64,000 nucleotides of DNA from an uncultured Chloroflexia bacterium (GTDB lineage Bacteria; Chloroflexota; Limnocylindria; Limnocylindrales; CSP1-4), in assembly GCA_963813335.1 (NCBI GenBank), contig CAWEYL010000001.1:128001-192000 (forward strand), written 5' to 3'. A model generated the notes under the pieces. The model was not told the origin of the DNA, did not search any database, and was given only the letters and a program-made list of their open reading frames with translations. Positions 1 to 45,921 of this stretch are shown here, in pieces; within the stretch, counting starts at the first letter, position 1; each line of letters opens with the position of its first letter. The position numbers were made by a program, and so were the translations under genes.

Positions 1-132
1 GCCGCGCCGTGCGACGTCCACGAGGTCTTCGCGACGGCCCAGGACGCCCTCCTCGCGGAGCTCGCGCAGGCGTCGATCGCCTCGATCGCCCGGACGGATG
101 GGTGGGGTGGCCTACGGGGCTCGAACCCGTAA
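1..132 (+). CDS. C-terminal fragment of a probable Rrf2-family transcriptional regulator (5' end outside window)
   Basis: Frame 1 reads ..APCDVHEVFATAQDALLAELAQASIASIA..; the C-x2-H plus amphipathic helix fits Rrf2 C-termini. Stop TAA at 130-132. Confidence 0.55.
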   Translation, partial: AAPCDVHEVFATAQDALLAELAQASIASIARTDGWGGLRGSNP

Positions 133-178
133 CCTTCGGAGCCACAATCCGATGCTCTGCCATTGAGCTAAGGCCACC
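103..178 (-). tRNA. trnH: tRNA-His(GUG)
   Basis: Reverse complement GGTGGCCTTAGCTCAATGGCAGAGCATCGGATTGTGGCTCCGAAGGTTACGGGTTCGAGCCCCGTAGGCCACCCCA: cloverleaf, GTG anticodon, G-1/C73 identity pair, T-loop GGTTCGA, encoded CCA. Confidence 0.97.
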
Positions 179-9141: not shown

Positions 9142-10533
9142 ATGACCACGACCGCCACCGCGATCGGGCCGCTCGTCGACGCGATCCGCTCCCAGCTCCC
9201 CGGGCTGCGGGTGCTCACCGACGAGATCGATCGCGAGTCGTACCGGCTCGACGAGACCGCCTACCTCAAGGCGGGCCTGCCGGGTGCCGTGGTCCTCCCG
9301 ACCGAGACGGCCCAGGTCGCCGCCGTGGTGCGGCTGGCCGGGGAGTTCGGTGTCCCGATCGTGCCGCGCGGCGCCGGGACGGGGCTGTCGGGCGGCTCGG
9401 CCGGCATCGAGGGCGCGCTGACGATGGCCTTCACGGCCATGGACCGGATCGTCGAGATCGACCGCGGGAACCTCGTCGCGGTCGTCCAGCCCGGCATCAT
9501 CAACGCGGCGTTGAAGGCGGCGGTCGCCGCCGAGGGCCTGTTCTATGCGCCCGACCCGGCGTCGTTCGAGCAGTGCTCCATCGGCGGCAACCTCGGCACC
9601 AACGCCGGCGGTCTCTGCTGCGTCAAGTACGGCCAGACGCGCGAATCGGTGCTTTCGCTCGAGGTCGTGATGGCCGACGGGACCGTCATCCGCACCGGCG
9701 GCAAGAACGTCAAGGACGTCGCGGGCTACTCGCTGACCCACCTGTTCGTCGGGAGCCAGGGGACGCTCGCGATCATCACCGAGGCCACGCTCAAGCTGCG
9801 CCCCACGCCGCCGCCCCGCTCGACGATGCTGGCGTTCTTCCCGACCCTCGACGGCGCCGGGGATGCGGTCGCCGGGATCGCCACCGCCGGGCTCTCGCCG
9901 GTGACCCTCGAGCTGCTCGACCGATTCACCATCAACGCGGTCGACGACATGAACGACCTCGGCCTCGACCGGACCGCGGCGGCGATGCTGATGATCGAAT
10001 CGGACGCGCCGGGCTCGGCCGCGACCGACGAGCTGGCCCGCGCCGAGGCCGTCTGCCGGACGGCGGGGGCGACGGACGTCGTCCGGGCGGCCGATGCCCA
10101 GGAGGCCGACTGGCTCCGCCAGGCGAGGCGGGCGGCGCACTACGCGCTCGAGCGCCTCGGCGAGGTCCGCATGGAGGACGTGAGCGTGCCGCGGTCGCGG
10201 GTACCCGACATGCTCCGCGAGGTCGAGCAGATCGCGCAGCGTCACCAGGTGCGGATCGGGACGTTCGGGCACGTCGGCGACGGCAACCTGCACCCCGACC
10301 TCGTGCTGGAGCGCGGCGACCCCGACGGCGAGGCGAAGACCGACGCCGTGCGCACCGACCTCTACCGCGCCGCGATGGCCCTCGGCGGCAGCATCACCGG
10401 CGAGCACGGGATCGGCACCGCCCGGCGGGCCTGGCTCGAGGAGCAGCGCGGCGCCGACGCCGTCCGGGTCATGCGGGCGATCAAGACCGCGCTCGATCCG
10501 CAGGGGATCCTGAACCCGGGGCGCGTGCTCTAA
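9142..10533 (+). CDS. FAD-linked oxidase, GlcD/D-lactate dehydrogenase family
   Basis: PRGAGTGLSGG, YAPDPAS, IGGNLGTNAGG, GSQGTL, HVGDGNLH, GEHGIG, LDPQGILNPG. Confidence 0.92.
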   Translation: MTTTATAIGPLVDAIRSQLPGLRVLTDEIDRESYRLDETAYLKAGLPGAVVLPTETAQVAAVVRLAGEFGVPIVPRGAGTGLSGGSAGIEGALTMAFTAMDRIVEIDRGNLVAVVQPGIINAALKAAVAAEGLFYAPDPASFEQCSIGGNLGTNAGGLCCVKYGQTRESVLSLEVVMADGTVIRTGGKNVKDVAGYSLTHLFVGSQGTLAIITEATLKLRPTPPPRSTMLAFFPTLDGAGDAVAGIATAGLSPVTLELLDRFTINAVDDMNDLGLDRTAAAMLMIESDAPGSAATDELARAEAVCRTAGATDVVRAADAQEADWLRQARRAAHYALERLGEVRMEDVSVPRSRVPDMLREVEQIAQRHQVRIGTFGHVGDGNLHPDLVLERGDPDGEAKTDAVRTDLYRAAMALGGSITGEHGIGTARRAWLEEQRGADAVRVMRAIKTALDPQGILNPGRVL

Positions 10534-10601
10534 GCCGGCCCGGCGCGCGCTCTAGCCGGCCCAGCCCGCGCCCCTGAAGGCGCACTGACCCGTCGGGCAC
10601 T

Positions 10602-10814
10602 CGGATATGCACGATTTCCGAGGGGCCCTCTTCGGATTCAGCGTATGCACCTCGGATGCATATGTCCGGCCGGTTCCGGGATCCGTCCTGACTTGCCTGG
10701 CACACCGCGACCACCTGGCGATGGCAGACCCGACCGCCGCGCCCCGCCCCTGATATGCAGCCGAGGTGCATCGCGATCGCGGAAGGCAACCCTGGCCGCA
10801 TTCGTGCATATCCG
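10602..10814. repeat. Inverted doublet of a dispersed ~61-bp repeat unit (copy 1)
   Basis: GGATATGCACGA-N30-ATGCACCTCGGATGCATAT (10603-10663) facing ATATGCAGCCGAGGTGCAT-N30-TCGTGCATATCC (10753-10813). Confidence 0.9.
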
Positions 10815-10826
10815 CCGGCAGCCGCG

Positions 10827-10873
10827 TATGATGCGCCGACGATGCATGCACATCTGTTCAGTACATCTGTGCA
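10827..10873 (+). promoter_or_regulatory. -10 box TATGAT and tandem SorC-family operator
   Basis: TGCACATCTGTTCA-GTACATCTGTGCA: direct ACATCTGT repeats with TGCACA/TGTGCA symmetry, directly upstream of the SorC-type gene. Confidence 0.6.
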
Positions 10874-10891
10874 AGGCCCGGACGCGACGCG

Positions 10892-11869
10892 ATGAGCGAT
10901 TTCGAGCAGCTCGTCCGGGCGAGCCGCCTCTACTACGAGCTCGGTGAGACGCAGAGCGCGATCGCCGAGCTGCTCGGCGTCACGCGCCCGCAGGTGTCGC
11001 GTCTCCTGAAGCGCGCCCGCGCGGAGGGCATCGTCGAGATCCGGATCGTCGACTCGACGCACGGTGACAGCCCGGCGGGCGACGTCCTTCGGCAGCGCTA
11101 CGGCCTCGATGCGGTCCACCTGGCCCCGACCATCGTCGGTCCCGAGGACCTGACCCGCCGCATGGTCGGCCGGCTCGCCGCCCAGGTCCTGCACGCCTCG
11201 GTCCGGGCCGGGTTGGTCGTCGGGATCGGCGACGGCGCATCCGTCTCGGCCACCACCGACGCGCTGTGCGACACGCTGGGCGGCGGCCCCGACGAGGCCG
11301 CGACCCCGATCGCGGCCACGGTCGTGCCCCTGTGCGGCGGCTTCTGGTCGACCGGTCCCGAGCGGGAGCCGTACCGCCGGGTCGCGCAGGCCCTCGGCGC
11401 CCAGGCGCATGGCCTGATGGCGCCCGGCCTCGTCGACGACGCCGCGACCCGGACCGCCCTGCTGGCCCACGCGGGCGTCCGTTCCGTGCTGGAGCTGTGG
11501 GACCGCCTCGACGTCGCGCTCTTCGGGATCGGCGGGCCTGGCTGGAACACCACGACGGTCGGCCCCGACATCGCGCGAGAGCTCGACGCCTCCGGCGCGG
11601 TCGGCGAGGTCCTGGTCGCCCCGTTCGACCTCGAGGGGCGTTTCGTCTGTCCGGCGCTGCGCGAGCGCGTGATCGCGTTCGAGGCTCCGCGGCTCGGGGG
11701 CGTCCCGGCGGCCATCGGCGTCGCCGCCGGCGCGTCGAAGGTCCGGCCGATCCTGGGCGCGATCCGTGCCGGCGTCGTGCGCACGCTCGTGACCGACGTC
11801 GCGACCGCGGAGGCCGTCGTGGCCCTCGACGCCTCGACGCCGACCCCGACTGGCGGGCCAGCGCGATGA
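10892..11869 (+). CDS. Sugar-binding transcriptional regulator, SorC/DeoR(Bs)/LsrR family
   Basis: N-terminal LYY..GETQSAIAELLGVTRPQVSRLLKRARAEGIVEI HTH; C-terminal GAVGE and LVTD motifs. Confidence 0.92.
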   Translation: MSDFEQLVRASRLYYELGETQSAIAELLGVTRPQVSRLLKRARAEGIVEIRIVDSTHGDSPAGDVLRQRYGLDAVHLAPTIVGPEDLTRRMVGRLAAQVLHASVRAGLVVGIGDGASVSATTDALCDTLGGGPDEAATPIAATVVPLCGGFWSTGPEREPYRRVAQALGAQAHGLMAPGLVDDAATRTALLAHAGVRSVLELWDRLDVALFGIGGPGWNTTTVGPDIARELDASGAVGEVLVAPFDLEGRFVCPALRERVIAFEAPRLGGVPAAIGVAAGASKVRPILGAIRAGVVRTLVTDVATAEAVVALDASTPTPTGGPAR

Positions 11870-25299: not shown

Positions 25300-25554
25300 G
25301 GTCCGCGATGACTCCCGGATGAGCGCGATGACGACGACGAGGATGAACGTGCTGGCGATCGGGCCAAGGGCATCCGACTGTACAGGCGCCCGCCCCCGAA
25401 TGGGACCCTTTCATGCCCGGTCCGGACGGAATGCCGGTGTCCCACGGCACCGACGCGGGCGGTCTGGTGGGGTCTGGTCGGGAGCGGTGGGCACCGCCCG
25501 TCGACGCCCGCTCCGATGGTACGCTCCGAGTCCGAGGAGGGTCGTCCAGCCCAC

Positions 25555-27879
25555 ATGACGCCACGTACCGAGGCGCCCGGCGCGCTCGTCATCCCGACCG
25601 GCACGACCGCCCCGGGTCGGGCACGCGGGCTGCCGCCTGCCCGGCGCGAGGGTCCCGAGAAGCTGACCGGCGCGGCCAGGTACGCCGACGACCTCGTGGT
25701 GCCGGGGGCCTGGTTCGGGGCCACGGTCCGCTCCACCGACCCGCACGCCCGGTTCGTCGCGCTCGAGCTCGACCCGGCGTTCGACTGGACGACCGTCGTG
25801 GTCGTCACCGCGGCCGACATCCCCGGCGACAACATCGTGAGCTCGATCAAGGCCGACCAGCCCATCCTGGTCCCGGTCGGCGGCGAGATCCAGCACCACG
25901 CCGAGCCGCTCGCGCTCATCGCCGCGCCCGACCGCGCCACCCTGCGCGCCGCGAAGGCCCACGTGCGGGTGCGCACGGAACGGCTCGAGCCGGTCTTCGA
26001 CCCGCTCGAGTCCGAGCACGTCTTCGCCCGGTACACCATCGAATCGGGCGAGGTCGACGCGGCCCTCGGCGCCGCCGACCTGGTCCTCGAGGGCGAGTAC
26101 CGGGTCGGCCACCAGGAGCAGCTCTACATCGAGAACAACGCGATGATCGCGACCCCGCGCGACGACGGCGGCGTCACGGTCACGGGCTCGCTGCAGTGCC
26201 CGTACTACGTCCACTCGGCGCTCAAGCTCGGCCTCGGCATCGACGACCGGCAGGCCCACGTCGTCCAGGCCGAGACCGGCGGCGGGTTCGGCGGCAAGGA
26301 GGAGTACCCCTCGGTCATCGGGCTCCATGCGGCGCTCCTCGCGCTGAAGGCGCACCGGCCCGTGCGCATGATCTACGACCGCCACGAGGACATCGCCGCC
26401 ACCACCAAGCGCCATCCCGCGATCGTGCGCCACCGCACGGGCGTGACCGCCGACGGCCGGATCCTCGCCCAGGACATCGAGATCGTCATGGACGGCGGGG
26501 CGTACTGCACGCTCACGCCCGTGGTCCTGAGCCGGGGCGCGATCCACGCCGGCGGCCCGTACCGCGTCCCGAACGTGCGCATCCGCGCCCGCGCGACGCG
26601 CACCAACACGCCGCCGAACGGGGCGTTCCGCGGCTTCGGGGCGCCGCAGGTCGAGTTCGCCGCCGAGACCCACCTGAACCGCCTCGCCGAGGCGCTGCGG
26701 CTGTCGCCCCTCGAGATCCGCCGCCGGAACGTCTACCGCCCCGGCGACACCACCCCGACCGGCCAGGTCCTGCGCGACAGCGTCGCCGGCGAGGAGGTCC
26801 TGGAGCGTGCCGCCGAGGCGAGCGAGTTCGAGCGGCTCCGGACGCGGACCGACCGCGACCGCGGCCAGCGGGCCGGCTCCGGGACGATCCCCAATTCACC
26901 GCTGCGGACGAGTCGGGCGAGGGTCGCCAGCGGGATCGGCCTTGCGCTCGCCTGGCACGGCGCCGGGTTCACCGGGTCGGGCGAGGTCAAGCTGGCCTCG
27001 GTGGTGTCGCTGGAGCTGACGGCGGCCGGCGAGATCCGCATCCTGACCGCCTCGACCGAGATGGGGCAGGGGACCAAGACGATCTTCCCGCAGCTCGCCG
27101 CGGAGGCCCTCGGGATCCCGTCCGACGATGTCGTCATCGCGCCCCAGGACACCGCCTCCGTCCCCGACAGCGGCCCGACCGTCGCGTCGCGCACCGCGAT
27201 GGTCGTCGGCGGGATGCTGATCAAGGCCGCGCGCCGGCTGCGCGCCGAGGTGGAGGCCGCGACCGGCGGGTCGTTCGCGGAGACGTACCGCGCCCACGCG
27301 ACGGCCCACGGCGCGATCCGGGTCGACGAGCGCTTCGAGCCGTACCCCGGCGTCGCCTTCGACGACGAGACCTATCGCGGCGACGCCTACCCGGCCTTCG
27401 GCTGGGCGGCGTGCGTGGCCCGGGTCGACGTCGACCTCGACACGGGCGAGGTCCACGTCCGCGACGTCGTGGCCGCCGACGACATCGGCCGGGTCATCCA
27501 TCCGGTCCTCGCCGAGGGCCAGGTGGAGGGCGGCACGCTGCAGGCGGTCGGCTACGCCACGATCGAGGAGATCAAGCTGCGCGACGGCCGCTACCTCAAC
27601 GACCGGCTGGCGACCTACATCATCCCGACCGCGCTCGACGCCCCGCGCATCTCGACGATCCTCGTCGAGGCGCCGTTCGCCGGGGTGCCCCACGGTGCCA
27701 AGGGGGTCGGCGAGCTGCCGATGGACGTGGGGGCGCCCGCGGTCGTCGCCGCCATCGCCGACGCGACCGGCGCCTGGATCGCCGACCTGCCGGCCAGCCC
27801 GGAGCGGATCCTCGCCGCGGTCCTCGGCCGGCCCGCGATCTCGCCGCTCCCGCCGGGCGCCTCCGAGCCCGCCCGATGA
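25555..27879 (+). CDS. Xanthine dehydrogenase molybdopterin-binding subunit (PucD/XdhA-type)
   Basis: EKLTGAARYADD, GGGFGGK, TTKRHP, AFRGFGAPQ, EMGQG, TVASR, GQVEGG, GAKGVGE. Confidence 0.93.
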   Translation: MTPRTEAPGALVIPTGTTAPGRARGLPPARREGPEKLTGAARYADDLVVPGAWFGATVRSTDPHARFVALELDPAFDWTTVVVVTAADIPGDNIVSSIKADQPILVPVGGEIQHHAEPLALIAAPDRATLRAAKAHVRVRTERLEPVFDPLESEHVFARYTIESGEVDAALGAADLVLEGEYRVGHQEQLYIENNAMIATPRDDGGVTVTGSLQCPYYVHSALKLGLGIDDRQAHVVQAETGGGFGGKEEYPSVIGLHAALLALKAHRPVRMIYDRHEDIAATTKRHPAIVRHRTGVTADGRILAQDIEIVMDGGAYCTLTPVVLSRGAIHAGGPYRVPNVRIRARATRTNTPPNGAFRGFGAPQVEFAAETHLNRLAEALRLSPLEIRRRNVYRPGDTTPTGQVLRDSVAGEEVLERAAEASEFERLRTRTDRDRGQRAGSGTIPNSPLRTSRARVASGIGLALAWHGAGFTGSGEVKLASVVSLELTAAGEIRILTASTEMGQGTKTIFPQLAAEALGIPSDDVVIAPQDTASVPDSGPTVASRTAMVVGGMLIKAARRLRAEVEAATGGSFAETYRAHATAHGAIRVDERFEPYPGVAFDDETYRGDAYPAFGWAACVARVDVDLDTGEVHVRDVVAADDIGRVIHPVLAEGQVEGGTLQAVGYATIEEIKLRDGRYLNDRLATYIIPTALDAPRISTILVEAPFAGVPHGAKGVGELPMDVGAPAVVAAIADATGAWIADLPASPERILAAVLGRPAISPLPPGASEPAR

Positions 27880-28361
27880 CCGCCTACCGGTTCACGGTCA
27901 ACGCGACGCCGCTCGAGGTGGACGTGCCGGGGATGCGCCGCCTGCTCGACGTCCTGCGCGAGGAGCTCGCGCTGACCGGCACCAAGGAGGGTTGCGGCGA
28001 GGGGGAGTGCGGCGCGTGCACGGTGCTGCTCGACGGCGCCCCGGTCGATTCGTGCCTCGTGCCCGTCTGCCAGGTCGACGGCGCCGACGTCCGGACCGTG
28101 GAGGGCCTCGCCGGCGCCGCGCTCACCGCCGGCGGCCCGCCCGTCCTCGACGACCTGCAGGCCGCGTTCCTGCGCGCCGGCGGCGCCCAGTGCGGGATCT
28201 GCACGCCCGGGATGCTCATGGCCGCGCGGGCCTACCTCGATTCCGGCGGCGGCCCCGACGAGGACGCCATCCGCGAGGCGATCGCCGGCAACCTCTGCCG
28301 CTGCACCGGCTACACCAAGATCGTCGAGGCCATCGCCATCGCCGCCGGCGGCCGGGGGTAG
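27876..28361 (+). CDS. Xanthine dehydrogenase 2Fe-2S subunit (PucE-type)
   Basis: GCGEGECGACTV..SC, QCGICTPG, NLCRCTGY. Confidence 0.95.
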   Translation: MTAYRFTVNATPLEVDVPGMRRLLDVLREELALTGTKEGCGEGECGACTVLLDGAPVDSCLVPVCQVDGADVRTVEGLAGAALTAGGPPVLDDLQAAFLRAGGAQCGICTPGMLMAARAYLDSGGGPDEDAIREAIAGNLCRCTGYTKIVEAIAIAAGGRG

Positions 28362-28367
28362 GGAGCG

Positions 28368-29225
28368 GTGCCGGTCGAGCCGCCCGTCGTCAGCCCGCGC
28401 AGCCTCGCCGAGGCGTTCGAGGCGATGGCCGACGGACGGACCCGGCCGATCGCCGGCGGCACGGACCTGATGGTCGCGCTGACCGGGGAGCTCGGCGAGC
28501 CGCCGGAGCGCGTCGTCGACCTGTGGGGCCTCGACGAGCTGCGCGGGATCGCGGTCGGCGGCGACGGGATCGTGCTCGGCGCCCTCACCACCTACACCGA
28601 GATCCGCCGCTCGGCGCTCTGCCGCGAGCATCTCCCCGGGCTGGTCGAGGCGGCCGCGACGATCGGGGCGGCCCAGATCCAGAACCGCGGGACGCTCGGC
28701 GGCAACATCGCCAACGCGTCGCCCGCGGGCGACACGCTGCCCGTCCTGCTCGCGCTCGATGCGTCGTTCGCGCTCGTGAGCGCCCGCGGGGAGCGCCTCG
28801 TGCCCGCCGCCGAGTTCTGGACCGGGTACCGCCAGACCGCGCTCGCCCCGGACGAGCTGGTCGCGCGGATCCACCTCCCGTTCGCCCCCGGGCGCGAGGT
28901 CCGCTTTCGCAAGGTCGGCACCCGCCGCGCGCAGGCCATCAGCAAGGTCGTGATCGCCGTCGCGTGGCGGAACGGCTCGAGCACGCACGCGTGGCGCGAG
29001 GTCCGGGTGGCCCTCGGGTCCGTGGCCGCGACGCCGATCCGCGCGGCGGCCACGGAGGCGGTGCTCGACGGCCGGGCGCCCAACCCGGAGACGGCCGACC
29101 TCGCCGCCGAGACGCTCGCCGGCGAGCTGCACCCCATCGACGACGTCCGCTCGACCGCCGAGTACCGCCGCGTGGTGGCCGCCCGCGTCCTGCACCGGAT
29201 CGTCCGCGAGGCGGGCGGCTGGTGA
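28368..29225 (+). CDS. Xanthine dehydrogenase FAD-binding subunit (PucC-type)
   Basis: IAGGTDL, QIQNRGTLGGNIANASPAGD, PIDDVRSTAEYR. Confidence 0.93.
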   Translation: MPVEPPVVSPRSLAEAFEAMADGRTRPIAGGTDLMVALTGELGEPPERVVDLWGLDELRGIAVGGDGIVLGALTTYTEIRRSALCREHLPGLVEAAATIGAAQIQNRGTLGGNIANASPAGDTLPVLLALDASFALVSARGERLVPAAEFWTGYRQTALAPDELVARIHLPFAPGREVRFRKVGTRRAQAISKVVIAVAWRNGSSTHAWREVRVALGSVAATPIRAAATEAVLDGRAPNPETADLAAETLAGELHPIDDVRSTAEYRRVVAARVLHRIVREAGGW

Positions 29226-29241
29226 GCGCCCCGGAGCGGCC

Positions 29242-29802
29242 GTGAGCCCATCGGCGCCCCCGTCGATCGACGTGCTCGACGTCCTGTCGCCGGGCATCTT
29301 CGCGGCGGCCGTCGCCCCGCTCTTCGAGGGCGCGCCGCGGTTCCTCGGGCGGCTGGCGATGGCCCGCCCGTTCGGCACCCTCGACGAGTTCTACGCCGGC
29401 GCCCGGCGGATCGCCCACGCGATGCCCGTGGCCGAGCAGCTCGAGCTGATCGATGCCCATCCGCGGCTCGGGGCGCCGCCCGCCAGCATGTCCGCGCTGT
29501 CGTTCGTCGAGCAGGGCCATGCCCCCGAGGTCGCCGCCGCCGAGGCGCACGCCGCCGAGCTGGACCGCGGCCGGGTCGCCGCCGAGCTGGACGCGCTCAA
29601 CCAGGCCTACGAGGAGCGGTTCGGCTTCCGCTACTGCGTCTTCGTGGCGGGTCGCCCGCGCGACGAGCTGCTGCCGGGCTTCCGGGCGGCCCTCGGGGCC
29701 GACCGCGACGCCGAGATCCGGCGGGCCGTCGACGCGGTCATCGACATCGCGCGCGACCGGCATGCCAGACTGACCGCGGGGACAGGGGAGGCCGGCCGGT
29801 GA
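29242..29802 (+). CDS. uraD: OHCU decarboxylase
   Basis: LFE, LIDAHPRLG, S..EQ, LNQAYEERFGF and IARDR motifs. Confidence 0.9.
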   Translation: MSPSAPPSIDVLDVLSPGIFAAAVAPLFEGAPRFLGRLAMARPFGTLDEFYAGARRIAHAMPVAEQLELIDAHPRLGAPPASMSALSFVEQGHAPEVAAAEAHAAELDRGRVAAELDALNQAYEERFGFRYCVFVAGRPRDELLPGFRAALGADRDAEIRRAVDAVIDIARDRHARLTAGTGEAGR

Positions 29803-30644
29803 TCGAACTCGGTGCCAATCGATACGGCAAGGCGGCGATCCGTCTGGTGCGCGTGCTGCGCGACCCGGGCGGCGACCGCGTCCGTGACCTGACGGTCGCG
29901 ATCGCGCTCGAGGGTGACTTCACGGCCGCGCACACCGACGGCGACAACGCGAACGTCGTCGCCACGGACACGATGAAGAACACGGCCTACGCGTTCGCCC
30001 AAGGGCACCTCGGCGGGGCCATCGAGGCCTACGGGGTGGCGCTCGCGGAGCACTTCCTCGAGTTCCCGCAGGTGGATCGCGCCACCGTGAACCTGCGCGG
30101 GCACCACTGGCGCCACCTCGAGGTGGACGGCAAGCCCGCGCCGGACGCGCTGATCCGCGGCGGCGAGGGGACCCGCGTCGCCACCGTCACCGCGACCCGC
30201 GGCGCCACCATCGTGGAGGCCGGGGTCGAGGACCTCGTCGTGATGAAGACGACCCGCTCGAGCTTCACCGGCTTCCCGCGCGACCGCTACACCACGCTGC
30301 CCGAGGCCGAGGACCGGCTGATGGCGACCAGGATCGCCGCGGTCTGGCGCTACGGCTCGCCGTCGGTCGACTTCGACGAGACGTTCGAGGCGGTCCGGAC
30401 GACGCTGCTCGAGGTCTTCGCCGAGCACGACAGCCCGTCGGTCCAGACCTCGGTGTGGATCATGGGCAAGGCCATCCTCGAGCGGCACGACGAGGTCGAC
30501 GAGGTGCGCATGGTGCTGCCGAACCTCCACCACTGGCGGGTCGACACCACGCCGTTCGGGGTCGACGACGACGGCGGGACCTACGTCGCGACGACCGAGC
30601 CGCACGGGCTCATCGAGGCGACCGTCCGCCGCGGGGACGGATGA
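29799..30644 (+). CDS. pucL: Factor-independent urate oxidase (uricase)
   Basis: YGK, VVATDTMKNT, KTTRSSFTGFPRDRYTTLPE..DR, SPSVQ, PNLHH, PHGLIE. Confidence 0.95.
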   Translation: MIELGANRYGKAAIRLVRVLRDPGGDRVRDLTVAIALEGDFTAAHTDGDNANVVATDTMKNTAYAFAQGHLGGAIEAYGVALAEHFLEFPQVDRATVNLRGHHWRHLEVDGKPAPDALIRGGEGTRVATVTATRGATIVEAGVEDLVVMKTTRSSFTGFPRDRYTTLPEAEDRLMATRIAAVWRYGSPSVDFDETFEAVRTTLLEVFAEHDSPSVQTSVWIMGKAILERHDEVDEVRMVLPNLHHWRVDTTPFGVDDDGGTYVATTEPHGLIEATVRRGDG

Positions 30645-32219
30645 CCGTCCCCGACGGCGTCGAGCTGCGCGGACCGGTCGTCCCGGGCCACGACCGGATC
30701 CTGACCGAGGCGTCGCTCGCGTTCGTCGCCGACCTGCAGCGCCGGTTCGGGCCGGTCCGCCTCGAGCTGCTGCGGCGGCGCGCGGAGCGGCAGGCCGAGA
30801 TCGACGCCGGGGTGCGGCCCGACTTCCTCGTCGCCACCCGCGATGTCCGCGAGTCCGAGTGGACGGTCGCGCCGGCCCCGGCCGACCTCGTCGACCGGCG
30901 CGTCGAGATCACCGGTCCGGCCGAGCCCAAGATGATGATCAACGCCCTCAACTCCGGGGCGCGCGTGTTCATGGCCGACCTCGAGGACGCCCTCTCGCCG
31001 ACCTGGGCCAACGTGATCGCCGGCCAGGCCGCGATCGCGGACGCGACCCGGGGCACGCTGACCTTCGACGCGCCCGACGGCAAGGCGTACCGGCTGGACG
31101 AGGCGACGGGCGACGCTCGTCGTCCGGCCCCGGGGCTGGCACCTCGTCGAGTCGCACGTGCTGGTGGACGGCACGCCGGTCTCGGCCTCGCTGTTCGACG
31201 TCGGGATGTACCTGTTCCACTCCGGGGCGGCGGCGATCGAGGCGGGGAGCGGCCCGTACCTGTACCTCGCCAAGCTCGAGTCGCACCACGAGGCGCGCCT
31301 CTGGAACGACGTCTTCGTCCATGCCCAGGCGGCGCTCGGGATCCCGCGCGGGACCATCCGGGCGACCGTGCTGATCGAGACGATCCTCGCCGCGTTCGAG
31401 ATGGACGAGATCCTCTCCGAGCTGCGCGAGCACGCCGCGGGCCTCAACGCCGGTCGCTGGGACTACCTGTTCAGCGCGATCAAGAAGTTCCGGACCGACC
31501 CGCGGATGGCGACCCCCGACCGCGCCCAGCTGACGATGACGGTGCCGTTCATGCGGGCGTATACCGAGCTCCTCGTCCAGACCTGCCATCGACGCGGGGC
31601 GCACGCGATCGGCGGGATGGCGGCGTTCATCCCGAACCGGCGCGACCCCGAGGTGACCGAGCGGGCGCTGGCCCGCGTCCGCGACGACAAGGTCCGCGAG
31701 AGCGGCGACGGCTTCGACGGGACGTGGGTCGCCCACCCGGACCTCGTGCCGGTCGCGCTGGAGGTCTTCGACGGCGTCCTCGGCGACCGCCCGAACCAGA
31801 AGGAGCGGACCCGCGACGAGGTGGCCGTCACGGCCGCGGAGCTGCTGGACTTCCGCGTCGACGGCGGCACGGTCACCGTCGCCGGCGTGCGCGCGAACAT
31901 CCGCGTGGCGCTCGCGTACCTCGATTCGTGGCTGCGCGGCGTCGGCGCGGCCGCCATCGACAACCTGATGGAGGACGCGGCGACCGCCGAGATCAGCCGC
32001 TCGCAGCTCTGGATGTGGATCACCCAGGCGGTCGTCCTCGACGACGGGACGGCCGTCGACCCCGAGCGCTACGCCGCGATCCGCGACGAGGAGCTGGCAC
32101 GGCTCGGCGGGGCGGGGGAGGGCCGCCTCGCGGAGGCCGCCGACCTGCTCGATCGCCTGGTGCTCGGCGACGACTTCGCCGACTTCCTCACCCTCCGGGC
32201 GTACGCCATCCTCGAATGA
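30641..32219 (+). CDS. aceB: Malate synthase A; frameshift near ~31110
   Basis: [67 protein letters not shown]. Confidence 0.93.
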
Positions 32220-32229
32220 CCGCGACCGC

Positions 32230-32274
32230 TTGACACGCTCCGCGGATGGGCGTATATATCGGCCATCGATATAT
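32230..32274 (+). promoter_or_regulatory. sigma70 promoter with PadR operator
   Basis: TTGACA (32230) with TATATA 17 nt downstream; palindrome ATATATCG-gccat-CGATATAT (32254-32274). Confidence 0.75.
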
Positions 32275-32300
32275 CGACCATCGTAACAGCAGGAGTCCAC

Positions 32301-32624
32301 ATGGAGCGGAACGCCCCGGAGTTCGGACGGTTCACCGAGCCGTCGCTGCTCATCCTCGTCAGCCTGAGCGACGGGCCGAAGCACGGCTACGCGATCATGC
32401 AGGACGTCGAAGCGGGCACGGGCCGGCCGATGGGTGCCGGCACGCTCTATGCCGCCCTCACCCGACTCGAGGCCGAGGGCTTCGTCGAGCCACTGGCGCC
32501 GGTCGACCGGCGCCGGCCCTATCGCCTGACCGCGATCGGCGCCTCGATGCTCGCCGAGCAGCTCCGCGGCCTGTCCGAGTTCGCCCAGCAGGGCCTTCGG
32601 CAGCTGCACGAGCTCGAACCATGA
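32301..32624 (+). CDS. PadR-family transcriptional regulator
   Basis: ILVSL..GPKHGYAIM, GTLYAALTRLE, RRRPYRLT. Confidence 0.93.
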   Translation: MERNAPEFGRFTEPSLLILVSLSDGPKHGYAIMQDVEAGTGRPMGAGTLYAALTRLEAEGFVEPLAPVDRRRPYRLTAIGASMLAEQLRGLSEFAQQGLRQLHELEP

Positions 32625-33349
32625 GAACGCTGCTGATCCGCTGCTATCCCGCCCGGTGGCGGGCTCGCTACGGCGACGAGTTCCTGGCGATCCTCGAGGA
32701 GCGCCCGCTCGGCCCGTACGACGTGGCGGACATCCTCCTCGGCGCGCTCGACGCGCGACTCCGGTCGCAGCGAGCCGCCGCTTCGCCCGAAAGGGGTTTT
32801 CCCATGTCGCTCCGTCTCGGCGGCATCGCCGCCATCATCGGTGCCGTCCTCTGGGCGGTCGCCGGCCTGCTCTCGATCGGCGTGGCCGGCAACGTCGACG
32901 GCGCCGTCCCGGTCGCGATGTTGATGACCGGCATGGTCGTGCTGCTCGTGGCCGTGGCCGGTCTCAGCGCCTTCCAGGCTCGGACCCACCCCGGGGCCAT
33001 CTGGGTCGCCTTTGCCGTGACCGCGATCGGGACGCTCACGTTCTTCGCCGGCTACATCGGGTCGGTCGTCCTGGCCGAGGACGGGTTCTGGGGCCTGTGG
33101 TTCATCGGGGTCATGACCGTCATGCTCGGATCGGGGCTGTTTGCCGCAGTGACGTACCGGACACGGGTCCTGTCGCGCGGCGGTGCCGCCCTCATCGGGA
33201 TCGGGATCGTGGTCATCCTCAGCGAGGCCGTTACTTCTATCGCGGCCCTGATCCCCATCGGGATGGCGTTGTTCGCGCTCGGGTGGCTCGCGCTCGGGGT
33301 CCAGGCGATCCGCGTGGACCGACCGTCCACGGCGACGAGTCCGGCCTGA
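32621..33349 (+). CDS. PadR-associated membrane protein
   Basis: N-terminal LLIRCYPARWRARYGDEF motif typical of PadR partners, followed by about 6 TM helices. Confidence 0.8.
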   Translation: MRTLLIRCYPARWRARYGDEFLAILEERPLGPYDVADILLGALDARLRSQRAAASPERGFPMSLRLGGIAAIIGAVLWAVAGLLSIGVAGNVDGAVPVAMLMTGMVVLLVAVAGLSAFQARTHPGAIWVAFAVTAIGTLTFFAGYIGSVVLAEDGFWGLWFIGVMTVMLGSGLFAAVTYRTRVLSRGGAALIGIGIVVILSEAVTSIAALIPIGMALFALGWLALGVQAIRVDRPSTATSPA

Positions 33350-33380
33350 GCTGGGAGATCGACCAACGACGAGACCGTCG

Positions 33381-34793
33381 TCAGGCTTCGATCGGCCCTC
33401 GCTCGATGAACCGCCCGAACCCGCGCTGACCGACGAAGGCGCCGTCGCGGATGACGGCGGCGCCGCGCACGAAGACCGATCGGACGGCCCCGGCGACCTC
33501 CATCCCCTCGTACGGCGTGTAGTCGCTCGTGTGGTGGAGGTCGCCGGCGTGGATGGTCCGGGTCACGCTCGGGTCGAAGAGGACGATGTCGGCGTCCTTG
33601 CCGACCCCGAGCACGCCCTTGGTCGCCAGGCCGAACCGGCGGGCCGGGGTCGTGGCGATCAGGTCGACCATCCGCTCGAGGGTGATGCGGCCGGTGGCGA
33701 CGCCGCGGCCGTAGAGGACGGCGAGCAGGGTCTCGATGCCGGGCGCGCCGTTGCTGATCTCGTTGAACGGCACGCCGCGGGCCGCGTCGCCCTTCTCGAC
33801 CGCCATCCGGTCCGGGACGTGGTCCGTGGCGACCAGGTCGAGCGAGCCGTCGGCGAGCCCCGCCCAGAGGGCGTCCTGGTCGGTCGCGGAGCGGAGCGGC
33901 GGCGAGATCACGTAGCCCGCGCAGCGGGCCGGGTCCGGCTCGTCGTAGACCGCGTCCGTGAACGCCAGGTAGTGGGGGCAAGTCTCGGCCGAGACGCGGA
34001 CGCCGGCCGCCTTCGCGCGGCGGACCTCGTCGAGCGCGGCGGCCGAGCTCAGGTGGACGACGTGGACGGGCGCCCCCGCCTGCCGCGCGAACGCGAGCGC
34101 TCGCGCGGTGGCGACCGCCTCGACGAACGGCGGTCGCGTGGCAGCGTGGTAGCGCGGTAGCACGTCACCACGCTGCAAGGCGTCGGCGATGGCCGCGTCG
34201 AGCAGGATCGGGTCCTCGCAGTGGACCTGGAGCATCCCACCGTGGCGGCCCATCACCCGCATCGCCTCGAAGAGCCGCGCGTCGGGCAGCCGGAAGTCGA
34301 ACACCATGAAGGCCTTCGAGGTCGCCACGCCGGCGTCGATGGTCGCGGGCAGCTCGGCGAGCGGGTCGTCGCAGCGGCCGCTGACCACCAGGCTCAGCCC
34401 GACATCGATCGCGCTGTCGCCGTCCGTCGCCGCGCGCCACTCCCGGACGCCCGTCAGCAGCGACCGTTCGGCCGCGGGCGACGACCCGGTGCCCGGGTTG
34501 TTGAAGGCGAGGAACGTGGTCGTGCCACCGAACGCGGCGGCAACGGAATCCTGGAAGAACCGGTCGGGCTCGGCGTCACTGCCGACCCGGGTGTGCGTGT
34601 GCACGTCGACCGCGCCGGGCAGCAGGAGGAGCCCGCTGGCGTCGATGGTCTCGCGGGCACTCGCCCGGAGGCCGCCGAGGTCGGGCTCGACCGCCTCGAT
34701 CCGCCCGGCGCTGATGGCGACATCGGCCCGCCGCGACCCGTCCGCGCGGACGACCGTCCCGCCCGTGATGAGGAGATCCGGCGTGCCCGTCAC
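33381..34793 (-). CDS. Cyclic amidohydrolase (dihydropyrimidinase/hydantoinase/allantoinase-like)
   Basis: LPGAVDVHTH, AAFGGTTT, KAFM (carbamylated Lys), HCED, HVVHLS, ETCPHYL, SPPLR, ATDH, GKDADIVLFDP. Confidence 0.9.
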   Translation of the reverse strand: MTGTPDLLITGGTVVRADGSRRADVAISAGRIEAVEPDLGGLRASARETIDASGLLLLPGAVDVHTHTRVGSDAEPDRFFQDSVAAAFGGTTTFLAFNNPGTGSSPAAERSLLTGVREWRAATDGDSAIDVGLSLVVSGRCDDPLAELPATIDAGVATSKAFMVFDFRLPDARLFEAMRVMGRHGGMLQVHCEDPILLDAAIADALQRGDVLPRYHAATRPPFVEAVATARALAFARQAGAPVHVVHLSSAAALDEVRRAKAAGVRVSAETCPHYLAFTDAVYDEPDPARCAGYVISPPLRSATDQDALWAGLADGSLDLVATDHVPDRMAVEKGDAARGVPFNEISNGAPGIETLLAVLYGRGVATGRITLERMVDLIATTPARRFGLATKGVLGVGKDADIVLFDPSVTRTIHAGDLHHTSDYTPYEGMEVAGAVRSVFVRGAAVIRDGAFVGQRGFGRFIERGPIEA

Positions 34794-36132
34794 CGGGGCA
34801 GGATAGCGGCCTCCAGCACCGGATCCCGGCCGGCCAGCCAGTCCGCCGACGAGAACGGCACGGCCACGTCGGGCGCGATCGTGATCCGCGGGTCGTCGGC
34901 GGTGCTCTTGACCCAGTAGCGCGTGGCGACGTAGACGTCGATCGGCCCGAGCGGTCCATAGGGCAGGCGCGTCGGCCGGACGTCGCCGTAGAGGTTCGGG
35001 CTGCCGCCCATCGGCTCCCCGACGAAGCGCGCTCCCGTGGTCTGCTCGAGCTCCGTCGCGAAATTGGCCGCGGCCGAGAACGTGACGCGCCCGATGAGGA
35101 CCGCCAGCCGGCCCGGCCGGTCGATGGCTGGATCCTGGAGGGCCTCGAGCAGGCGTCGGTAGGTGGTGTTGTCGCCGCCGCCGTTGTTGCGCAGGTCCAC
35201 GACGACCCGGTCGACGCCGGGCTCCTTCGCGCGGGCGAGGATCTCGTCCGCGACGGCGTTGATGCCGCCGCGGACCTCGTTGTACTGGACGTAGAGCGTC
35301 CGCGAGTCGGCGAGGAACGTCCACCACAGGGCGTCGTGCTTGCGGCTGAGCCACAGCGGCGATCCCGTCGGCGGCAGCGTGAGCGGGTCGCCGCCATGCC
35401 ACGCGACGTCGTCGTCGGCCAGGATCGGCGCGATCCGGACATCGCGCGACGGCGCATCGGGTCCCGGCCCGGCGACGGTGAAGGTGGCCGGGCCCGACGG
35501 ACTCGATGACGCCCAGGCCGGCCAGCAGCTCGCTGGTCCGCAGGTACAGCGGCGCGTACGCCGAGCAGGTTGGACGGGTTGTCGCGCGGCGCGAGCGGCT
35601 CGACCGCGGCCATGACGTCGGCGATGGGATGGCCGTCGATGGCTTCGACCCGCGAGCCGACGAGGTCCCCGTACGGCGCCTTCGCCGCGGTGATCACGAG
35701 GCCGTCGCTGAACCGCCACATGAGGATCGGGTACACGTGGGTGCCACTCCCCGGAGTGAACGGGAAGACCCCGGTGTGGCCGTCGCGCCCGCCCCAGCCG
35801 GGCATCGAGGCGAGGCGGACGACGTCGACGAGGGCGGCGTCGTCGTCGATGGTCGGGATCCGCGCCTTGGCGGAATCGGCCGCCGCGACCCAGGTGGCAC
35901 GGTCGATGTCGTGCCACGGATCGGGGTGGAGCCGCTCGCGGGATTCGAGCAGCGCATCGATGTCGGCGCGCCAGCCTTCGTCGCGGGTGAGGGCTGCCGA
36001 CGCCGAGGGCGCTGCCGACGCCGATGGCGCGGGCGCGGTCGTCGGTGCGGGCGTGGCCGTCGGTGCGATCGCCTGGCCGCAGCCGGCCAGGAGGAGGGCG
36101 GCGACCAGGGCGGCGGCGCTCGGTCGGCGCAT
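34790..36132 (-). CDS. S41-like peptidase lipoprotein; indels near ~35500-35565
   Basis: Lipobox LLAGC, DGHT, VVDLRNNGGG, TFSAA, VGEPMGG, IAPD. Confidence 0.8.
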
Positions 36133-36133
36133 C

Positions 36134-36604
36134 TCAGGCCGACGCTTCCATGGTGTCGTCGATCAGGTTCGCCTCGGCGGTCGACGCCGCCTCGCCGATC
36201 ATCCGCAGCGTGGTCCGCGCGGCGTCCCCGTCGAGCGTGAGCGCGGCCATGAACCGTCGATCGGCCTCCTCGAACGCCCGGCTCGCGGACGCATGGGCGC
36301 CGAGGCCCTCGTCGGTCAGGGCCAGCTGATAGGACCGCCGGTCGGCCGGGACCGGCTGGCGGATCGCGTGGCCGCGCTCGATGAGCGCCCGGACGTAGTG
36401 GGACATCGAGGTCGGCGGCATCCCGACCCGACGCGCGAGGTCCGTCGGCGTCTGCGGACCCTCGTCGAACAGGACGCTGTAGACCGCGTAGTCGTCGGGC
36501 GTCAGCGTCGCGTCGGCCATCGCGCGCTGCACCAGCGTGCGCACCCGCTGCTGGGTCGCGAAGAGCTCGAACAGGACCGAGAGGTGCGAGGAGGGCTGCC
36601 GCAT
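36134..36604 (-). CDS. MarR-family transcriptional regulator
   Basis: TPTDLARRVGM..TSMSHYVRALIERGH, DRRSYQLALTDEG. Confidence 0.92.
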   Translation of the reverse strand: MRQPSSHLSVLFELFATQQRVRTLVQRAMADATLTPDDYAVYSVLFDEGPQTPTDLARRVGMPPTSMSHYVRALIERGHAIRQPVPADRRSYQLALTDEGLGAHASASRAFEEADRRFMAALTLDGDAARTTLRMIGEAASTAEANLIDDTMEASA

Positions 36605-36610
36605 CGGGGA

Positions 36611-36632
36611 GATGCTACCAGATGGTAGTATC
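36611..36632. promoter_or_regulatory. MarR operator overlapping the -10 box
   Basis: GATGCTACCA-ga-TGGTAGTATC near-perfect palindrome; TAGCAT on minus, 7 nt from the ATG. Confidence 0.75.
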
Positions 36633-36637
36633 TCGCG

Positions 36638-36820
36638 GGATATGCACGAGTTCCAGGGGGATGACCTTCCGAATCATCGATGCACCTCGGATGCATATCG
36701 TCGCCCGGATCGATACGCGCTCCGGTCGGGTGCCCGAGCCAGGCCCGCGCGCTCGCCCTTGATGCAGCCGAGGTGCATCACGATTCCGGAAAGGGGTCCC
36801 TCGGCGAAACGTGCATATCG
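36638..36820. repeat. Inverted doublet of the ~61-bp repeat unit (copy 2)
   Basis: GGATATGCACGA-N30-ATGCACCTCGGATGCATAT (36638-36698) facing ATGCAGCCGAGGTGCAT-N30-ACGTGCATATCG (36762-36820). Confidence 0.9.
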
Positions 36821-36890
36821 CGGGCGCGCGGGCGACCGGGCGCAGCGGGCGCGCCAGACGACCGCGCGGGCGCGCGGCGCACACGAAGCG

Positions 36891-37314
36891 CTACTCGACC
36901 TCGCTGATCCGGATCGGCTGGGCGCCCTCCCAAAGGCAGCGCCGCCCGACCTCGCGCAGGCGGTCGGCCCAGCCGTCGTCGGGCTCGACCGGACGCGAAC
37001 ACGTTCGCGGCCAGCTGGCCCACCTTGGAGGCCGTCGTGCACCCGCCGTACGGGAAGAAGATCTCGCATTCGCTGATGCCGCCCGGATAGATCGCCAGCT
37101 GGCCGGGCGCGGGATGCGAGGTGTGGTTCTCGTAGTCGAGCCCGGGCCGGAAGTCCCCGAACGGGATCCAGGTCGACTCGCCCGTCCAGCGGCAGTGGAT
37201 CAGCTTCGACTCGATCGGCAGCATCCGCCGGATGGCGTCGACGGTCCGCGGGGCCGCCGGGTCCCAGCGGGCGCTAAAGTGCAGGTCACCGACCTCGATG
37301 CGCAGCGTTCCCAT
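36891..37314 (-). CDS. DUF3830-family protein (cyclophilin-like fold); frameshift near ~37000
   Basis: APRT, LIHCRWTGESTWIP, ENHTSHPAPGQLAIYPGGISECEI, GQLAAN, LWEGAQPI. Confidence 0.85.
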
Positions 37315-37328
37315 CCGCGGAGGATAGC

Positions 37329-37676
37329 GTGGCGGCCCAGCCCGACGAGACGCGTCCCACCATCTCGACGCACGTCCTCGACGCCGACCGCGGCATGCCC
37401 GCCGTCGGTGTCCGGGTCGCCCTGCTCCGCCTCGACGTCGGCGATGCCCCCATCCGCATGACCCAGGCCCTCACCGACGCCGACGGCCGGGTCCGCGACC
37501 TCCTCGAGCGACCGCTCGCGGCCGGCGACTACCGCATCGAATTCGATGTCGCGCGCGAGGACGGCACGTTCTTCACGAAGCTGTCGGTCGACCTGCGCAT
37601 CACGGACGTCACCCGCAGCTACCACGTCCCGCTGCTGCTCTCGCCCTATTCGATGACGACCTACCGGGGCAGCTGA
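37329..37676 (+). CDS. uraH: 5-hydroxyisourate hydrolase
   Basis: ISTHVLD..G.PA, TDADGR, YHVPLLLSPYSMTTYRGS (diagnostic YRGS C-terminus). Confidence 0.95.
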   Translation: MAAQPDETRPTISTHVLDADRGMPAVGVRVALLRLDVGDAPIRMTQALTDADGRVRDLLERPLAAGDYRIEFDVAREDGTFFTKLSVDLRITDVTRSYHVPLLLSPYSMTTYRGS

Positions 37677-37698
37677 CGACCGAGTCGCGCCGGTTCGC

Positions 37699-39813: not shown

Positions 39814-39914
39814 GAGCCCTCGGCTACGCGAACGAACGCAGGCGCCATCGTACGACCTCTGGCGGAAACGCTGTGCCAGCCTAGATGTCACGGGTCGGCG
39901 CCACCGTTCGGCCC

Positions 39915-41216: not shown

Positions 41217-41382
41217 ACCGAAGGTCCTATCGGGTCTGGTGGGGTCTGGGCCGGTCGGCGGTGCGTGACCGGGACCAAGGTCGGATTGGCCAAGGGTTGC
41301 CAACCGGGGGAGACTAGAGACGAACGAGGCCGATCGTCGCGTCGATCCGCGCCACGTGGTCAAGCCCGGACCCGGAGTGTTC

Positions 41383-43816: not shown

Positions 43817-43920
43817 CGGGCGCGGTCGCCCGCCTTGCACCGGTGCGCTATCGTGACCGTCCCGGCGCCCCGGAACCGGACCGCGGCGCCCCGATCTCGA
43901 TCGAAAGCTGAGGTTCTGCC

Positions 43921-44895: not shown

Positions 44896-44978
44896 TCGGC
44901 GTGCCGCCGCGCGGCCGGCGCCGCGCCCGCTGCGCGCCGCCCGGGCCGCGCAGACCACCCCGGGCCGCCGTTCGAGCC

Positions 44979-45174
44979 CGACCTGCCATAACGCTCGCCC
45001 ACAGAACCTAATGGCCGATTTCGGGCGGGCGATCACGACGTCCGGCCGCGCCGATCGCCCACGCACGGACCACGCTCGATCGCGGCATCCAGGCGGCCGT
45101 GTCGGCTCGAAATGGAGCCCAAACCGGCTCATCACCAGCCATAACGTTCCGTGGGTGGTCGTTGTGCCAGGTCG
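44979..45174. repeat. 37-bp imperfect inverted repeat pair (second repeat family)
   Basis: CGACCTGCCATAACGCTCGCCCACAGAACCTAATGGC versus the reverse complement of 45138-45174: 29/37 identical by hand alignment. Confidence 0.7.
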
Positions 45175-45250
45175 AGACCATGGCCCATGGGGCTCCGGGC
45201 GTCGCCCCAGCTCACCCGACAACTCGGCCAGGCGTCCCGGCCATCTCCGT

Positions 45251-45840: not shown

Positions 45841-45921
45841 AACCTGGACCCGCGGGAGCTCGGGCACGCCCCCAGGCCCGGGCTCCCCGCGACTCGGCCG
45901 GCATCGGGCACACTGAGCCCG

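Follow-up and report, generated by a model that had tools for sequence, protein, structure and literature searches.

A dispersed, convergently paired intergenic repeat in Limnocylindria-like genomes and a candidate Cro/CI-type partner protein

The repeat in the window

The DNA analysed here (the window) is a stretch of 64,000 nucleotides from an uncultured Chloroflexia bacterium (GenBank assembly GCA_963813335.1, contig CAWEYL010000001.1, positions 128,001 to 192,000; C1:128001-192000 of the genome designated G000). Between its genes lie five copies of a 61-nt repeat, each composed of two short conserved boxes, A and B, separated by a variable spacer of 30 nt. Together with their counterparts in related genomes, these units are best classed as a population of dispersed intergenic repeats that is linked to one flanked gene present in single copy, in this case a gene for a helix-turn-helix (HTH) protein instead of a RAYT transposase. 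An earlier note, made from the sequence alone, had described units at 10603-10663, 10753-10813, 36638-36698, 36762-36820 and 45253-45313, and all five were found; the true extent of the fourth is 36760/36762-36820. Four units form two convergent pairs (plus strand, then minus strand) with box B innermost in both, and the fifth stands alone:

10603-10663, plus strand: unit 1, with box A at 10603-10614 (GGATATGCACGA), spacer at 10615-10644 (30 nt) and box B at 10645-10663.
10664-10752: core of pair 1, 89 nt, unrelated to the other cores.
10753-10813, minus strand: unit 2, inverted, with box B at 10753-10771, spacer at 10772-10801 (30 nt) and box A at 10802-10813.
36638-36698, plus strand: unit 3, with box A at 36638-36649, spacer at 36650-36679 (30 nt) and box B at 36680-36698.
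36699-36759: core of pair 2, 61 nt.
36760-36820, minus strand: unit 4, inverted, with box B at 36760-36778, spacer at 36779-36808 (30 nt) and box A at 36809-36820 (ACGTGCATATCG).
45253-45313, minus strand: unit 5, with box B at 45253-45271, spacer at 45272-45301 (30 nt) and box A at 45302-45313.

The repeat is genuine and not a product of chance: ATATGCACG-N(28-34)-ATGCACCTCGGNTGCAT, used as a search pattern, has five matches in the window, compared to 0.00 expected from 100 dinucleotide-preserving shuffles, and box B alone, with up to three mismatches allowed, identifies the same five units (0.37 expected). The anatomy proposed in the earlier note held: the spacer measures exactly 30 nt in five of five units, the pairs enclose cores within the proposed range of about 60 to 90 nt, and the mutually inverted unit ends are complementary and able to pair. 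Its box consensus applies in general, with small deviations in unit 4, where box A reads CGATATGCACGT and box B ends in TGCATCA, two outer bases being diverged (TGATGCAG...). All five units lie between called genes, the gene calling having left some gaps of the window without annotation, and the 49 open reading frames of the window that were scanned are free of transposase, RAYT and cas domains.

Unit 2 lies close to the promoter of a gene encoding a SorC-type regulator, with a TATGAT -10-like hexamer 18 nt downstream of the end of its box A. Unit 3 starts 34 nt from the start codon of a divergent marR gene (36137-36604, minus strand). Unit 5, the sole single unit of the G000 genome, is located between the Ku gene (43921-44895) and the cupin and LigD genes.

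Two simple explanations of the unit were rejected. A CRISPR array does not fit, as box A and box B differ, each unit has one spacer, the units are inverted, the spacers are weakly alike and the window has no cas domain. A small protein-coding gene is ruled out by stop codons in some copies and by the 31-nt spacers of others.

Copies in the genome and at orthologous loci

The G000 assembly (2.54 Mb in 7 contigs, 72% G+C, approximately 81% complete) contains 19 exact copies of box B, arranged as nine convergent pairs and the one single unit, so that the genome-wide count exceeds the five units of the window. One mismatch adds no copy and two mismatches add two; the extra hits at three mismatches look like chance matches within genes. 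A box A of the ATGCA type is present at the fixed distance in all 19 units, with a spacer of 30 nt in 18 and of 31 nt in one. The cores of the nine pairs range from 31 to 347 nt, and some contain extra degenerate box B-like sequences. Flanking genes at the ten loci are convergent in two cases, divergent in three and tandem in five. They include those for an FAD oxidase with the SorC regulator, MarR, Ku with LigD, an aquaporin, a DinB-like polymerase with a two-component system, an F420 ligase, an ABC-F protein, a thiolase and MoxR.

The full-unit pattern was found at 30 loci in a 596-Gb genome collection, all of them in records of Chloroflexota metagenome-assembled genomes (MAGs; 27 titled 'uncultured Chloroflexia', two 'Candidatus Limnocylindrales' and one 'uncultured Anaerolineaceae'). 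Most of these loci are again convergent pairs. Box B alone was discarded as a collection probe in favour of the full-unit pattern; it returned at least 112 stretches, mostly chance matches in unrelated taxa. In a draw of 41 genomes comprising G000, 24 others of its genus and 16 of the neighbouring family, exact box B was present in three (G000, G014 and G016) and in none of the 16 from the neighbouring family.

Four MAGs (G057 to G060) with flanks 78-92% identical to G000 at the nucleotide level carry pairs orthologous to pair 1, pair 2 and the single unit of G000, as well as to three other loci. At the site of unit 5, G057 and G058 have a full convergent pair. All 21 pairs at the orthologous loci of the relatives are convergent, and one site has a single recognisable box. 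Pairwise identity between orthologous units, with comparisons of unequal spacer length left out, was 373/420 (0.89) for box A and 609/665 (0.92) for box B, and 489/1052 (0.465) for the spacer. Spacer length was kept at 30-32 nt. The orthologous cores differ widely in length and are unalignable; that of pair 1 is much shorter in G057, G058 and G060 and cannot be aligned with the G000 core. The difference in identity between boxes and spacer, together with the maintained spacer length, indicates that boxes and spacing are under purifying selection and that the rest drifts.

The search for empty sites suggested in the earlier note revealed shorter, unfilled orthologous sites in congeners. The distance from the oxidase stop codon to the SorC promoter is 28, 53, 84 and 85 nt in G044, G018, G051 and G045, respectively, and 285 nt in G000, with flank homology resuming approximately 5-15 nt past the right unit. 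In G015, G050 and G047 the same spacer measures 255-271 nt and is occupied by other repeats. Conversely, two loci that are short in G000 are filled in relatives: one in G057, G058 and G059, the other in G057 only, with other sequence in G058 and G060. Relative to other congeners, the units are insertions. A target duplication, also looked for, was not visible at filled compared to empty sites.

Several of these loci carry further repeats. At the oxidase-SorC site, G050 (L161) has an inverted doublet of TCCGAAATCGGA-type boxes with 30-32-nt spacers, and G015 (L160) has three TCGATCACCC...GATCGA-type hairpins that are unlike the HTH-linked box of G015 itself; small repeats seem to be attracted to this site (L161, L160 and L159, the last from G047). 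At the G060 locus orthologous to G000 C6:97422-97513 (L279, approximately 2150-2330), a 22-nt inverted repeat (ATCCACCCGAGGACTCTTGGGC and its complement) was observed, the inner part of which is box B-like and the arms of which point outward, opposite to the usual arrangement. G057 has approximately 3.5 kb of extra DNA compared to G000 at C4:513688-517831 (L175), with a repeat pair at its left end; a second pair, the one orthologous to the single unit of G000, lies approximately 0.6 kb past its right end.

Folding and covariation

For tests of structure, 72 distinct units were collected (19 from G000, 53 from relatives) with a pattern allowing spacers of 29-31 nt; the spacer is 30 nt long in 54 of them and 31 nt in 18. 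One explanation raised earlier is a structured RNA or single-stranded DNA element, with an outer stem formed by box A and the right arm of box B, a loop consisting of the variable spacer of fixed length, and a box B hairpin with a conserved 7-nt loop. The complementary unit ends are in line with such a stem: the variable outer position of the ends reads T-A in 51 units, G-C in 10, T-G in three, T-C in seven and G-A in one, i.e. it is pairable in 64 of 72 units (chi-square p 8e-8). Since the G-C cases come mostly from one subfamily, this covariation may reflect descent. RNAalifold predicted only the small box B hairpin, and in other lineages the arms of box B are non-complementary (ATGAC...GCAT, ATGAG...GCAT) with no compensating change.

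The remaining results speak against a structure. In the gathering-threshold Rfam scan of the window the only hit was an unrelated tRNA, and at E-values up to 10 the region 10500-10900 around pair 1 gave one spurious weak hit. Spacers of the 72 units fold like their shuffled counterparts (mean z -0.12, with 17% of units below -1), and a column-pair scan of the 54 units of equal length gave no pairing beyond expectation (maximum z 2.3 among approximately 1,700 pairs). Compensated spacer hairpins had seemed visible by eye, but neither of these tests gave a signal; the spacer shows weak positional preferences and a weak consensus only. Pairs occur in both orientations relative to genes, a scan of pair 1 for promoter-like or terminator-like consensus sites found none, and box A is absent altogether from the box family of the genomes G008 and G064. 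The sequencing runs containing the sequence were 20 DNA runs of wetland and soil metagenomes, with no RNA run listed. A structured nucleic acid is the least probable of the explanations considered here, and we give it very little weight.

A candidate cognate protein

A gene encoding a 119-aa HTH protein is enclosed, in G057, G058 and G059, by one orthologous pair of complete units in convergent orientation; in G059 the gene occupies L133:771-1127. Pfam assigns the protein to HTH_31/HTH_3 (XRE/Cro-type HTH), and its nearest sequences in the PDB are DNA-binding domains of the 434 repressor type, Stl, C.BclI/C.AhdI and HigA. An AlphaFold2 model built from a 17-sequence alignment (pLDDT 78.1, pTM 0.69) was compared to the PDB with Foldseek; the top ranks were taken by restriction-modification (R-M) controller proteins (C.BclI, C.AhdI), ClgR and HipB, none of them reaching E 0.001, so that the ranking is indicative only. 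The alignment reveals a conserved N-terminal extension in which M1 and W3 are invariant. Because the same units bracket its gene in the closest relatives, the boxes look like sites of a Cro/CI-type protein.

Homologues of the HTH protein (36-61% identity, E up to 1e-5) are encoded in 32 of 61 genomes of the genus, and full-length relatives occur in other genera of the family as well; at the class level 36 of 121 genomes were counted, a tally that includes many generic HTH hits. Inverted repeats resembling box B flank the HTH gene at eight of the first ten loci and lie just upstream of it at the other two. They flank the gene at five of nine further loci, two other genera among them, and the four loci without them belong to the weakest homologues. 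The frame ATG-N11-CAT is kept in 11 of 12 box variants (N10 in G118), with differing centres such as CCTCGGC and the G064-type CGTGGAC. This agrees with what is expected of operators for an XRE/Cro-CI-type repressor, namely a pseudo-palindrome of approximately 14-18 bp that has its half-sites separated by one helical turn and is located at the gene for the repressor itself. The order thioredoxin-reductase-like gene, HTH gene, ABC exporter is conserved in G058, G064, G017 and G016, which argues that the HTH gene is a resident of the chromosome and not cargo. In G058, box B is present in five tandem copies (27-nt period) on one side of the HTH gene, and 3 kb away a second pair encloses a DUF4395 gene.

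Two further features were noted upstream of the gene. Between the left unit and the HTH start lies an 11-nt tandem repeat of the GGCCCGCGGAT type, with approximately eight copies in G057 (L113, approximately 700-790) and fewer in G059 (L133). A degenerate half of box B is found approximately 45 nt ahead of the HTH start codon in G057 and G059.

Genome-specific box variants

In each genome, the variant that flanks the HTH gene is also that genome's dispersed repeat, with 7-54 copies. Searches with the individual variants gave the following counts, while reversed-pattern controls gave none in every search:

G008/G064 variant (same pattern in both): 32 hits in G008 and 35 in G064, mostly convergent pairs.
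G017 variant: 7 hits in G017, none in four other genomes.
G015 variant: 54 hits in G015, 10 in G044 (a related variant), 1 in G055, none in G017 and G019.
G019 variant: 7 hits in G019, 1 in G055, none in three others.

Of the 40 G015 copies inspected, most match the 20-mer exactly, their flanks being unrelated save for approximately 12 weakly conserved bases, and the two boxes of a pair can overlap. As the G008/G064 family has no box A, the combination of box A and the 30-nt spacer is a trait of the G000-type family. Several pairs of G057 to G060 consist of one canonical box and one variant, ATGCAT[A/G]TCGGCTGCAT; the orthologous units of G000 are canonical at three such loci. The variant of G015 is also unevenly distributed, with approximately 15 copies at kilobase-scale spacing in the 43 kb of C17:5000-48000, much denser than elsewhere.

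Transposition and recombination

According to the earlier note, the units might be a repeat family resembling repetitive extragenic palindromic sequences (REPs), their inverted doublets (REPINs) or miniature inverted-repeat transposable elements (MITEs), moved in trans by a nuclease or transposase. The boxes would then be recognition sites of the enzyme, and the HTH gene could be a preferred neighbour, a regulatory gene or the locus from which the repeats originated, without being what keeps the boxes conserved. Much of the pattern agrees with this: short lineage-specific boxes, homogeneous within each genome; inverted doublets in all intergenic contexts, inherited vertically at orthologous sites; presence or absence of insertions of approximately 200 bp in spacers otherwise 28-91 nt long; different box types in G000 and G064 at the same locus; and the near-exact G015 20-mer between unrelated flanks.

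The enzyme and the marks of copying were not found. PF01797 (Y1/RAYT) was detected in control genomes and in none of the six element-bearing genomes (G000 and G057 to G061, all MAGs, G000 being 81% complete); a RAYT gene flanked by doublets, a possibility raised in the earlier note, was thus not found there, and the bracketed gene is the HTH gene. According to the box-pair coordinates of the same six genomes, no pair encloses a segment of the size of a transposase or insertion sequence (IS), and the largest cores hold only the HTH or the DUF4395 gene. Neither a palindrome conserved across lineages nor a long doublet hairpin is present: the box B arms pair in the G000-type family, but sister variants keep only ATG...CAT, and the spacers and cores of the arms are unrelated. 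Copies of a MITE should share internal sequence and have target-site duplications and terminal inverted repeats matching an autonomous IS. Here no internal sequence is shared, no duplication is visible and no pair holds a transposase-sized segment, no search of an IS database having been made. Since copies share neither spacer nor core, nothing points to a defined MITE having been copied recently. Moreover, the orthologous copies are old, with spacers near saturation and boxes intact, which would require selection at each locus. A selfish repeat moved in trans is, in our judgement, unlikely, though it deserves more credit than a folded structure.

A site-specific recombinase would account for other features. 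Box B would be its core site, with two arms and a strictly conserved, asymmetric 7-bp crossover region, and each pair would form a module that can be inverted or exchanged. Within a genome the asymmetric centre does not vary, pairs are always inverted, some of them bracket whole genes, and G000 has three tyrosine recombinase genes. None of these three genes is near an element, and no recombinase gene adjoins any element. Many cores are too short to invert (some of 10-31 nt, with overlapping boxes in G015), and the bracketed HTH gene points the same way with respect to its neighbours in G058, G064, G017 and G016. Contigs from four metagenome runs covering 27500-47000, short and of low depth, contained no inversion joint at the elements. 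The marks of an inverton, namely an invertible segment, a nearby recombinase and both orientations, were thus not found, and recombination sites are a highly improbable explanation.

A composite binding site for an HTH protein

We consider it somewhat more probable than its negation that the units are dispersed, vertically inherited composite binding sites for an HTH protein, following the logic of REPs and RAYT with a non-catalytic partner. Among the options of the earlier note, protein binding is therefore the favoured one: boxes and spacer length are kept while the spacer is scrambled, and a candidate HTH gene is bracketed by units. That this protein binds the boxes is itself what we infer from the sequences.

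Each 61-nt unit would constitute a composite site in double-stranded DNA. Box B might serve as a 17-bp pseudo-palindromic operator with the ATG-N11-CAT frame and an asymmetric, lineage-specific centre. Box A would be an extra copy of the left half-site of box B, 38 bp upstream of that half-site and held 30-31 nt from box B. The proposed binder is the Cro/CI (XRE)-type HTH protein of about 120 aa, the single-copy chromosomal gene of which is bracketed by units in the closest relatives. Presumably it is dimeric, with a dimer on the 17-bp box B. The N-terminal arms of lambda repressor contact the centre of the operator, and the N-terminal extension of the HTH protein might likewise read the asymmetric centre of the box. 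Box A and the fixed spacer might support cooperative or wrapped binding, with two such complexes facing each other across the core. The brackets at the HTH gene and the DUF4395 gene would be compatible with repression by looping, while for pairs with short cores a roadblock or insulator between operons is the simplest guess. The ancestor of one subclade of this Limnocylindria-like genus would have acquired the convergent pairs in its intergenic DNA, and they have since been inherited vertically, with selection keeping boxes and spacing while spacer and core sequences drift.

A number of observations weigh against this assignment. A near-exact asymmetric site of 17-20 nt in up to 45 copies is stricter than a usual operator regulon. 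Two of the ten G000 loci lie between convergent gene ends, where a promoter operator would be senseless; the genes flanking the ten loci have no functional theme, and the loci do not coincide with the promoter regions of a coherent regulon. Two loci common to G000 and G064 carry different box types, a difference that calls for coevolution of box and protein, for conversion or for re-insertion. There is no simple covariation of protein and box: G014 and G164 encode an HTH homologue of 41% identity with a different recognition helix (LAQSAISRLE vs IDQTLISKLE), yet have nearly the G000-type box. No ATGCA-type boxes flank the homologues of G060 and G061, and the HTH gene of G057 reads as frameshifted, though this genome has 17 boxes. 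Finally, no copy of the HTH gene was recognisable in G000 by tblastn; together with a profile search, it returned only generic XRE-type hits (C2:46446-46664, C3:474396-474584 and C1:1046907-1047125), none beside a box. As a 41-kb region of G058 around the HTH gene has no counterpart in the 81% complete G000 assembly, an assembly gap is most likely the reason. For G000 itself, the link to the protein therefore rests on its relatives.

A wider proposal can be put forward only tentatively, with the odds rather against it: throughout a family of Limnocylindria-like Chloroflexota, a resident non-catalytic Cro/CI-type HTH protein and 10-50 convergent paired sites would diversify together in a vertical partnership like that of REPINs and RAYT, and form an undescribed chromosome-wide system. 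The lineage-private box centres, homogeneous within a genome, would fit this, with sites being renewed by a copying or conversion process. Such a system might provide protein roadblocks or insulators between operons where GC content is high and intrinsic terminators are few, or a scaffold for looping or silencing.

Other features of the window

Two inverted repeats next to the units probably belong to the neighbouring regulators. The one at 10842-10874 (TGCACATCTG...CATCTGTGCA type), upstream of the gene for the SorC-type regulator, is almost unchanged in G057 and G058 while the adjoining units are scrambled, and is probably the SorC operator. The probable MarR operator is a near-perfect palindrome at 36611-36632 (GATGCTACCAGATGGTAGTATC), in the gap that separates the start codon of marR from unit 3. 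The remaining features are:

106-177, minus strand: tRNA gene; the Rfam scan gave no other hit in the window.
25516-37676: purine catabolism cluster with molybdopterin and FAD subunits of the xanthine dehydrogenase type, OHCU decarboxylase, uricase, malate synthase, a PadR regulator, an amidohydrolase and HIU hydrolase.
43921-44895 and 45922-48624: gene pair for non-homologous end joining, encoding Ku and a multidomain LigD (phosphoesterase, ligase, primase-polymerase), with unit 5 and a cupin open reading frame in between.
53716-54556: pair of a Phd/YefM antitoxin and a PIN-domain toxin.

Comparison with known systems

Tus/Ter and RTP/Ter combine a gene for a small DNA-binding protein, located beside its own asymmetric site, with about ten more polar sites on the chromosome. 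The likeness to the units described here would consist in the small protein gene next to its own site and in the dispersal of sites. Here, in contrast, there are convergent pairs at each locus, so that both polarities occur together, up to 54 copies, and a protein of a different fold family.

In the immunity region of lambdoid phages and phage 434, OL and OR lie on either side of cI, and controller (C) proteins of R-M systems have C-boxes. Cro/CI operator arrays and C-boxes share with the present system the HTH fold class, pseudo-palindromic operators of approximately 17 bp mirrored on both sides of the regulator gene, and a specificity that diverges fast between lineages. They differ in that the sites described here are also found at 10-50 chromosomal loci as paired insertions of approximately 150-470 bp, including some between convergent genes, that their centre is asymmetric and nearly invariant, and that no phage or R-M genes are nearby.

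Elements of the BIME (bacterial interspersed mosaic element) and MITE type have conserved motifs with variable linkers, inverted ends and intergenic insertion, and RIB/RIP and Correia elements carry binding sites for the host protein IHF. Modular motifs with variable linkers, inverted ends and the placement between genes are common to BIMEs, Correia elements and the units. Unlike them, the units have no shared internal sequence, terminal duplication or matching IS (no IS database was searched), and their conservation is limited to boxes and spacing. Mosaic intergenic repeats, BIMEs and MITEs such as Correia/NEMIS have been reviewed (PMC3184786).

Dispersed intergenic repeats are common in bacteria. 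Of the repeat populations that persist for long by vertical inheritance and are linked to one single-copy gene, that of REPs and REPINs with RAYT is to our knowledge the sole well-understood case. REP/REPIN doublets with their RAYT, a Y1 transposase, are described for Enterobacteria and Pseudomonas (PMC3116915; PMC3337134; bioRxiv 10.1101/2021.07.10.451892). The G000-type units resemble them in their short boxes in inverted doublets, their strictly intergenic placement, sequence families proper to each lineage, vertical inheritance at orthologous sites, and a single-copy, vertically inherited cognate gene flanked by the repeat. The units differ from REPs and REPINs in several respects. The flanked gene encodes a non-catalytic Cro/CI-type HTH protein and no Y1/RAYT was found in the six genomes; box B forms no conserved hairpin across lineages, and the doublet arms are non-complementary in spacer and core; copy number is low (3-54 per genome); and a second box is held at a fixed distance of 30 nt.

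A literature search for a described Limnocylindria repeat family, or for XRE regulators with dispersed repeat-borne sites, returned nothing relevant. The candidate partner protein and the private box variants throughout the genus make the finding more interesting than a generic REP-like repeat: a population pattern of the REP/REPIN type is seen here with a plain DNA-binding protein and no recognisable transposase. If the HTH protein does bind the boxes, the units would give an abundant, uncultured lineage of soil bacteria a ready regulon or architecture system that can be tested. They would also offer a natural series of co-diversified protein-site pairs, with at least six box variants, for the evolution of operator specificity, and would raise the question of how tens of sites stay identical within a genome yet differ between close relatives. 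The fixed 30-nt offset of the extra half-site is a concrete handle on cooperative binding.

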